The position numbers and the translations under genes are program-made. Of a stretch of DNA of 458 nt, positions 1 through 458 are shown piece by piece. This DNA is from Escherichia coli. Lineage in GTDB: Bacteria; Pseudomonadota; Gammaproteobacteria; Enterobacterales; Enterobacteriaceae. Position 1 is the stretch's first letter. Each line of letters begins with the position of its first letter. Under the pieces are notes generated by a model, which saw nothing but the letters and a program-made list of their open reading frames with translations, made no database searches and was not told where the DNA came from. Where the stretch lies: NCBI RefSeq assembly GCF_003334255.1, contig NZ_QOWU01000235.1, one strand, 5' to 3'.

Positions 1-458
1 CTTCCCAGCTGGCTGTCAGGTTTTGGTGTACCAAACGGCATGTTCTCCTGGTAAATCTGCGCCCCCATGAAGTTTTCATTCATGGCAAGGTTCGCAAACG
101 GACGCAGAATGGTCGGTGCTGCGTTTTTCAGCAATGCCCCCGACAACGTTTCCGACGTCTCGCTGCCGATCGGGCTGAATGCCCCCAGGATACCGCCGAC
201 AACATTACCGGCAGCACGTGAAGCAGTCAGGTCGCCCGCTGCCACACCTTCAGCTGTATGACCAAGCAGGAAGAACACGTTGTACCCGTAAGGCAGAGGA
301 ATACTCCAGTACTCACCGGCCTTGCCCCCGAACATCGATTTCATGATGACGAGGTTACGCTCTTTCACATGAGACGGTACTTTGTCGTACCAGTTAACCC
401 CGTCATCATCCTCACCCGCCACACTGCGGTTAAGCGAGCCAAGCAGATAACCCGCTCC
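1..458 (-). CDS. Partial CDS (internal fragment, both ends outside the window) encoding a Gly/Ala-rich hypothetical protein; family not assignable from sequence alone
   Basis: Seen in sequence: reverse-complement frame starting at nt 458 is open for 152 codons (nt 458..3, with 2 nt of the next codon at 2..1). Translation: GAGYLLGSLNRSVAGEDDDGVNWYDKVPSHVKERNLVIMKSMFGGKAGEYWSIPLPYGYNVFFLLGHTAEGVAAGDLTASRAAGNVVGGILGAFSPIGSETSETLSGALLKNAAPTILRPFANLAMNENFMGAQIYQENMPFGTPKPDSQLG. The other two minus frames reach stops quickly (TGA and TAA within roughly 30 codons of the window's 3' end). A 152-codon stop-free run at about 55% GC is unlikely by chance (roughly (61/64)^152, under 0.1%). Codon usage is enterobacterial-like: CTG is 8 of 15 Leu codons, with CCG, AAC, TAC, TTC and GGT/GGC preferred. 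No start or stop codon lies in the window, so gene boundaries and full length are unknown. Confidence 0.85.

Follow-up and report, generated by a model that had tools for sequence, protein, structure and literature searches.

An aromatic-rich stretch in an Escherichia coli prophage fragment is the start of the LPD38 domain of a giant phage protein

Reading frame and parent gene

The window analyzed here is the whole stretch of 458 nucleotides of E. coli DNA. Its minus strand contains a single open frame of 152 codons, which runs off both ends. The plus strand and the other minus frames contain only short ORFs or many stops. The plus-strand ORFs of 64 aa and 55 aa gave no PHROG match, and an Rfam search of the window gave no match to an RNA family. 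When the window is compared with 933W, 29 codons differ, 27 of them synonymous and 2 non-synonymous, so the minus frame is under strong purifying selection. A gene or RNA on the plus strand was rejected because neither PHROG nor Rfam supports it and the minus frame with its 27:2 pattern accounts for the sequence.

Phage GER2 and chromosomal prophages in several E. coli strains carry the window DNA with 100% identity. A set of about 180 short-tailed phages, Stx-converting or related to these and including 933W, VT2-Sakai, Min27 and POCJ13, show 93-95% identity to it. Only 4 of the 481 places of the window among E. coli matches are plasmid-borne. In E. coli SCU-104 the identity with the parent protein, WP_174147770.1, is 100%, and the window corresponds to L001:12001-12458 within the CDS 4636-13020 (8385 nt). 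RefSeq names this product "LPD38 domain-containing protein", and exact matches elsewhere are named LPD38 or LPD5 domain-containing. The giant gene is the last gene of the SCU-104 prophage, adjoining the chromosomal yfdC, and lies at the end of the late (virion morphogenesis) region of this 933W/phi24B-type short-tailed prophage. Among the PHROGs, the fragment matches positions 2455-2606 of phrog_616, a function-unknown family of 2793 positions; no NCBIfam model matches it. The main features of the window are as follows.

1..458, minus strand: internal coding fragment, open at both ends; residues 2456-2607 of a 2794-aa giant polyvalent protein of the 933W L0134 type
414..458, minus strand: C-terminal half of a long helix (residues 2446-2469; helix 567-590 of the structural model), rich in small and hydrophobic residues
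399..413, minus strand: acidic loop EDDDG with a near-invariant DDD core, just beyond the N-terminal edge of the Pfam match here
270..395, minus strand: aromatic-rich block NWYDKVPSHVKERNLVIMKSMFGGKAGEYWSIPLPYGYNVFF; residues 22-63 of the fragment, 2477-2518 of the protein
15..395, minus strand: LPD38 portion in the window (Pfam PF18857, model positions 2-112 of 189)

Several observations concern the surroundings of the giant gene. The five genes directly upstream of it (L001:1416-4550) match PHROGs of unknown function (phrog_610, 611, 596, 594 and 601), and L001:1911-2567 matches phrog_8003, 'virion structural protein', weakly (E = 7.6e-9). These five genes may encode further internal or ejected virion proteins. 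At L001:253-1359, immediately preceding the late genes, are a gene for an Ail/Lom-family outer-membrane protein and a Hok/Gef toxin gene. The hokW/sokW genes of 933W are found downstream of L0134, whereas the SCU-104 prophage ends at yfdC; the gene order around the giant gene thus differs. In some Stx records (NC_004914.3 (Stx2 II), AP004402.1 and AP005153.1) the giant gene is present as two or more CDS. The tblastn match to the records with the split gene comes in two pieces at 89.5% identity, which suggests frameshifts, sequencing errors or disrupted copies.

The initial annotation of this DNA had recognized no known motif in the aromatic block. Profile tools, with which alone the relationship is visible, correct this: the block is positions 2 to about 40 of the Pfam LPD38 model (PF18857). 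On the fragment, LPD38 covers residues 22-148 (model positions 2-112 of 189, E = 1.4e-28), and in the full protein it covers residues 2477-2682 (model positions 2-189 of 189, E = 1.1e-48). The block sits about 300 residues before the C-terminus of the 2794-aa protein. The Pfam match starts just past EDDDG. It does not reach the hydrophobic helix that precedes this loop, the Q-K and N-R pairs or the invariant DDD, which are as conserved as the matched part. LPD38 is one of 40 large polyvalent-protein-associated domains of elusive function; it occurs in phages only, and no function has been assigned to it (Iyer, Burroughs, Anand, de Souza & Aravind 2017, PMC5512222). The finding is therefore one of an annotated domain in a known gene, and the aromatic stretch is ordinary, the start of a catalogued domain rather than something new.

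The other domains of the parent protein are LPD5 (residues 1051-1200), LPD1 (1361-1440) and MuF_C (1750-1840), and Pfam gave nothing significant within its first 1000 residues. As in polyvalent proteins, several unrelated domains are joined in one very large polypeptide encoded among late/virion genes. The context is of the phage type rather than that of a conjugative element, as seen from the prophage setting and the phage matches. The literature disagrees on MuF-C, which is described as a metallopeptidase with a suggested role in peptidoglycan degradation (bioRxiv 10.64898/2026.04.10.717836) or as PBECR, a predicted RNase (PMC5512222). Two segments in the N-terminal part were also observed. 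Residues 405-432 (IEGAAFGAAMGAPFGAVAGY..., L001:5848-5931) form a glycine-zipper-like segment, which ranks second or third in hydrophobicity within the protein; its Gly-zipper matches in Pfam are insignificant (E about 0.8-0.9). A (Val-Pro)n repeat, EVPVPVPVPVPVD, at residues ~872-890 (L001:~7250-7300) looks like a rigid linker before LPD5.

Conservation of the aromatic block and neighboring motifs

The composition reported in the initial annotation is correct. Nine of the 42 residues from 22 to 63 are aromatic (W23, Y24, F43, Y50, W51, Y57, Y59, F62 and F63), and positions 399-413 of the minus strand, directly before the block, translate to EDDDG. This is the highest aromatic count of any 42-residue window in the 2794-aa parent protein. 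Nevertheless, a count of 9/42 was reached in 830 of 2000 shuffles of the 2794-aa protein (about 41%) and in 165 of 2000 shuffles of the 152-aa fragment (8%), and composition by itself was rejected as a signal for this reason. The signal above chance is the conservation of the aromatic positions; composition is weak.

Homologues were collected by a full-database phmmer search with residues 2419-2705 as query, and 148 of the best representatives, with 35-74% identity, were aligned by MAFFT. In these 148 homologues, six of the nine positions are aromatic in at least 94% of the sequences: W23 (96%), Y24 (100%), Y50 (98%), Y57 (99%), Y59 (99%) and F62 (94%). W51 is intermediate (69%). F43 is aromatic in 34% and lies in a loop with 14-29% gaps, and F63 is aromatic in 24%. 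Conservation of the aromatic positions, which had been put forward as the test of the block, thus holds for most of them and fails for F43 and F63. Position 30, a His here, is aromatic in 70% of the homologues, Tyr in most. The block ranks second in conservation among the 42-residue stretches of the C-terminal module, as expected of a conserved region and not of a poorly conserved linker. Because most aromatic positions are conserved and the stretch as a whole is highly conserved, the objection that the block might be an unconserved linker fails. In a separate alignment of 50 sequences covering the last 915 residues, 29 columns are at least 90% aromatic and the block holds 6 of them. It is the densest 42-residue window for such columns (hypergeometric P = 0.0014, uncorrected).

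The non-aromatic residues of the block are also conserved. K26, P28, E33, R34, N35, P54, P56, G58 and N60 are each 93-99% conserved in the 148 homologues. In the acidic loop, the corresponding values are 93% E/D at E16, 98% D at D17, 99% D/E at D18, 99% D at D19 and 84% G at G20. Three further motifs could be delineated in the same alignment.

375..392, minus strand: WYDKVP, consensus [WFY][YWF]DK[VI]P; the first two positions are aromatic in 96% and 100%, followed by D 84%, K 97% and P 98%
279..299, minus strand: turn PLPYGYN; P 99%, L 82%, P 99%, Y 98%, G 97%, Y 93%, N 98%
42..80, minus strand: polar motif NENFxGxxIYxEN; N 99%, E 87%, N 79%, F 84%, G 95%, I 85%, Y 73%, E 82%, N 73%

At L55 of the PLPYGYN turn, the homologues without Leu have Met.

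Four deep-branch phages were aligned to the 148-sequence profile: Vibrio D80 (36-40% identity), Ralstonia Heva (23%), Burkholderia DC1 (25%) and Bacteroides BF1-TP2 (22%). All four keep DDD, N35, P54 and a number of Pro, Gly and Asn residues further downstream without change, and position 23 is aromatic in each of them. N127 and N129 of the NENFxGxxIYxEN motif are invariant in the deep clades too (N164 and N166 in alignment A2). The Ralstonia, Burkholderia and Bacteroides phages have SQEF or SPEL in place of the PYGYN turn, and only 3-4 of the nine block positions remain aromatic in these three. Conservation of PLPYGYN thus belongs to the 933W/Vibrio-type subfamily. Because the deep branches keep 3-4 of the nine aromatics and lose PYGYN, the whole aromatic block is a feature of this subfamily. 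In the sequences compared, the acidic DDD loop is family-wide, and the full aromatic block marks a large 933W/Vibrio-type subfamily.

A DxDxDG calcium-binding loop was considered for the acidic motif and rejected. The sequence is G-E-D-D-D-G, and position 1 of the pattern is Gly in 63%, Asp in 28% and Glu in 7% of the homologues. The Gly at position 6 of the pattern is absent from the deep clades.

The C-terminal module, its predicted fold and its hydrophobic helices

At the 50% identity level, the phmmer search returned 5727 clusters with E <= 1e-3, of which 960 reached E <= 1e-30. In these proteins, typically of 1500-4000 residues, the family match always ends 62-108 residues (median 88) before the C-terminus. 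Continuous alignment from about residue 1900 to residue 2794 is seen in more than 130 of 150 representatives, as against 0-50 for any part upstream. The conserved unit is thus a C-terminal module of about 900 residues (residues ~1890-2794, L001:10300-13017), which is much larger than the 189-position Pfam model. This LPD38 module is common to thousands of giant phage proteins with differing N-terminal domains, which are LPD5, LPD1 and MuF_C here and include lysozyme, RelA/SpoT and methylase domains elsewhere. Some database members have only 939-1040 aa; instead of stand-alone modules, these may be ORFs cut short in metagenomic data.

AlphaFold2, given 50 sequences, produced a confident model of residues 1880-2794 (mean pLDDT 85.3, pTM 0.83). 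The module is predicted to be mostly helical with one beta subdomain. The block occupies residues 598-639 of the model (pLDDT 81-92) and follows a 24-residue helix and the DDD loop. Its predicted elements are, in order, a short helix, the helix SHVKER, the strand NLVIM, a variable Gly-rich loop, the strand EYWSIP, the turn LPYGY and the start of the helix NVFF.... In a Foldseek search of predicted viral structures, essentially the entire module could be superposed on the C-terminal portions of further polyvalent phage proteins, with TM scores of 0.6-0.88 at identities down to 13-16%. The matches include a protein of phage PTXU04, and all are uncharacterized or named for their LPD or cargo domains (LT_GEWL, RelA/SpoT, methylase).

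The solved structures gave no relative. A phmmer search of the PDB with the protein found nothing relevant, and a profile search of the PDB with alignment A1 returned only coiled-coil and low-complexity noise (huntingtin, myosin and dynactin), which is due to non-homologous N-terminal columns. A Foldseek search of solved structures with the module model gave no meaningful match, the transporters found being weak (E >= 0.2, TM <= 0.11). Neither sequence nor fold homology to solved ejection proteins (T7 gp14-16, P22 gp7/16/20) was found, which places the protein outside the known ejectosome families. PADLOC reported a match to the SNF2-type N-terminal region of DruE at L001:10921-11376 (module residues 217-368, E = 6.8e-4), upstream of LPD38. 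With 15 bits it was rejected as probable noise.

The block is surrounded by hydrophobic helices. The core of the helix before it, IVLAAVGAGYLLGSL (residues 2450-2464), is the most hydrophobic 15-residue window of the whole protein (Kyte-Doolittle 2.01) and ends eight residues upstream of the DDD core. In 90% of the homologues this core is free of D, E, K and R. Two Gly/Ala-rich helices just past the block rank fifth and sixth for 15-residue hydrophobicity. The fifth-ranked one is the following.

165..215, minus strand: Gly/Ala-rich helix (655-668 of the model) ending in the conserved G-S-F-S-P-I-G, with F in 98% and P in 100%

No 19-residue Kyte-Doolittle window in this region exceeds 1.4. The lowest sums of Hessa insertion energy are +5.3 kcal/mol (17 aa) and +5.8 kcal/mol (19 aa), and no translocon-type transmembrane helix was found. 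Classical transmembrane helices were rejected on both scales; with a best Hessa sum of +5.3 kcal/mol, the helices around the block are not of this kind. They could be the buried core of a soluble bundle or latent membrane-active segments.

Possible role and comparison with known systems

Our best explanation has three joint parts, to which together we assign a probability of about 0.55: the block is, as shown above, the N-terminal core of LPD38, the aromatic residues and DDD would form a structural or interface element, and the module would be a delivery chassis for packaging and ejection. The conserved aromatics (W/Y at 23-24, Y50, Y57, Y59 and F62), the invariant Pro and Gly residues and the DDD loop would hold together a small element of two strands, hairpin-like, and a helix. 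This hairpin-helix element would be wedged between the Gly/Ala-rich hydrophobic helices and may serve as the packed core of the module or as a contact surface for protein or membrane. The constant C-terminal module would act as the delivery chassis, placing the protein inside the capsid. It would then take part in the ejection of the protein ahead of or with the DNA and possibly help to form the trans-envelope conduit of a short-tailed phage. The variable N-terminal domains would be the delivered cargo.

We infer the role of the module in packaging and ejection from its position, its conservation and virion proteomics of whole proteins. The gp47 protein of phi24B, which contains LPD5, LPD1, MuF-C and LPD38, was detected in abundance in virions by mass spectrometry but is not visible in the cryo-EM map, and a role as an internal ejection protein has been proposed for it (bioRxiv 10.64898/2026.04.10.717836). 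The same report gives two different lengths for gp47, 2811 aa and >3,000 aa. JC1 gp69, with LPD38 at 4195-4401, is virion-associated by mass spectrometry (PMC9144972). PTXU04_00025, whose sole annotation is LPD38, is required for efficient infection, which is impaired by its knock-down (bioRxiv 10.1101/2023.09.18.558157). Several findings speak against the proposed mechanism. The model resembles neither solved ejectosome proteins nor any other PDB entry, and no segment has the hydrophobicity of a classical transmembrane helix. The conserved polar residues (DDD, K, E-R-N, N-E-N and E-N) would also fit a binding or catalytic site, and the aromatic pattern is only partly kept in the deep clades.

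Short-tailed phages need a trans-envelope conduit. The helices flanking the block might themselves supply a membrane-inserting or pore-forming element: buried in a soluble helical bundle inside the capsid before ejection, the Gly/Ala-rich helices would insert into the inner membrane afterwards in a colicin- or Bcl-2-like manner, with Trp and Tyr at the lipid interface and DDD binding cations or head groups. Such an element would be a specific form of the interfacial role that the initial annotation had considered, next to ligand binding, for the Trp/Tyr cluster. Of the six 15-residue windows with the highest hydrophobicity in the 2794-aa protein, three, the top-ranked one included, lie within 100 residues of the block; the first helix core is uncharged in 90% of the homologues, the conserved aromatics cluster between the hydrophobic helices, and the phi24B authors propose gp47 for the trans-envelope conduit (bioRxiv 10.64898/2026.04.10.717836). 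However, the best Hessa energy of +5.3 kcal/mol for 17 residues is far from the value of about 0 expected of membrane helices, the transporter matches in Foldseek are insignificant (E >= 0.2, TM <= 0.11), and the hydrophobic pattern suits the buried central helix of a soluble bundle equally well. We regard such latent insertion as unlikely. It is distinctly unlikely that the module is only an encapsidation anchor, which would dock to the portal, the scaffold or the capsid interior for incorporation into the procapsid and have no direct role in membrane passage. About 900 conserved residues are many for a docking signal, and the phi24B map shows no ordered portal density attributable to gp47 (bioRxiv 10.64898/2026.04.10.717836), although the module does keep a fixed distance from the C-terminus whatever the N-terminal content, the C-terminal region of N4 virion RNA polymerase is by analogy required for encapsidation (PMC5512222), and a 933W/GP4-like portal and tail are common to the LPD38-bearing phages.

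An enzymatic or metal-binding site, with DDD and the conserved K, E-R-N and N-E-N as its center, the aromatics lining a pocket and peptidoglycan or nucleic acid as candidate substrates, seems improbable to us. Charged and polar conservation in and around the block is unusually strong, and at identities as low as 22-25% DDD and three Asn residues still show no variation. Yet no enzyme family was matched by Pfam, NCBIfam, PDB sequence or fold search, the seven potentially enzymatic LPDs of Iyer et al. exclude LPD38 (PMC5512222), and the DxDxDG calcium pattern is broken at position 1, which is Gly here and Asp in 28% of the homologues. The residues that stay invariant down to the deep branches are mainly Pro and Gly, pointing to a structural role.

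The delivery chassis could also be conceived more boldly. In a tentative extension that we consider possible but doubtful, the ~900-residue module would be an unrecognized fold acting as a single-polypeptide ejectosome, which would dock in the capsid, exit through the portal, engage the host envelope by its Gly/Ala-rich helices, the Trp/Tyr cluster and a cation-binding DDD loop, and deliver swappable cargo. If so, it would explain how podophages of the 933W/GP4/Bcep22 type deliver their DNA without recognizable T7- or P22-type ejection proteins, and the module would carry interchangeable N-terminal anti-defense or enzymatic cargo into the cell.

The phages to which the gene belongs bring Shiga toxin into E. 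coli, and the giant protein is their largest and least understood virion component. The additions made here are modest and leave the classification unchanged: a list of near-invariant residues, a conserved unit that extends beyond the Pfam domain, and a predicted fold with no solved relative. The near-invariant residues DDD 2472-2474, W2478/Y2479, K2481, P2483, E-R-N 2488-2490, Y2505, P-L-P-Y-G-Y-N 2509-2515 and F2517 are targets for mutagenesis.

In comparison with known systems, 933W L0134, phi24B gp47 and the VT2-Sakai homologue represent the same gene, and the window has 93-95% DNA identity to these Stx-phage homologues. In 933W, residues 2440-2705 of the protein (266 aa) are 97.7% identical, 2 of the 152 window codons differ in amino acid, and the giant gene likewise lies at the end of the late region and adjoins the attachment site. 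The LPD5-LPD1-MuF_C-LPD38 architecture is alike in phi24B gp47. Unlike the Stx-phage homologues, the exact allele of the window comes from non-Stx prophages and phage GER2; no functional difference was seen. With respect to Pfam PF18857, the block is the start of the model, the upstream helix, the Q-K/N-R pairs and DDD fall outside the match, and the unit in evolution and structure has about 900 residues as against 189.

The giants called 'DarB-like antirestriction' proteins in Bcep22-like Burkholderia and GP4-like Ralstonia phages (JC1 gp69, DC1 gp67) have the LPD38 module equally far from the end. Giants of the JC1 gp69 type are virion-associated by mass spectrometry (PMC9144972) and occur in short-tailed phages with related head and tail genes. 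Proteins of the JC1 gp69/DC1 gp67 type differ in that identity in this region is 23-25%, PYGYN and most block aromatics are replaced, and the N-terminal cargo consists of lytic transglycosylase, methylase and helicase domains. A similar mode of action is described for the N4 virion RNA polymerase gp50, a giant protein that is carried in a podovirus head and ejected into the host and in which injection, activity and encapsidation reside in separate regions (PMC5512222). It differs in having a metallopeptidase domain in its encapsidation region, and no sign of LPD38 was found in it. Finally, a functional analogy is proposed with T7 gp14/gp15/gp16 and P22 gp7/gp16/gp20; these internal proteins, mostly alpha-helical, exit the capsid and form a channel across the envelope for a short-tailed phage.
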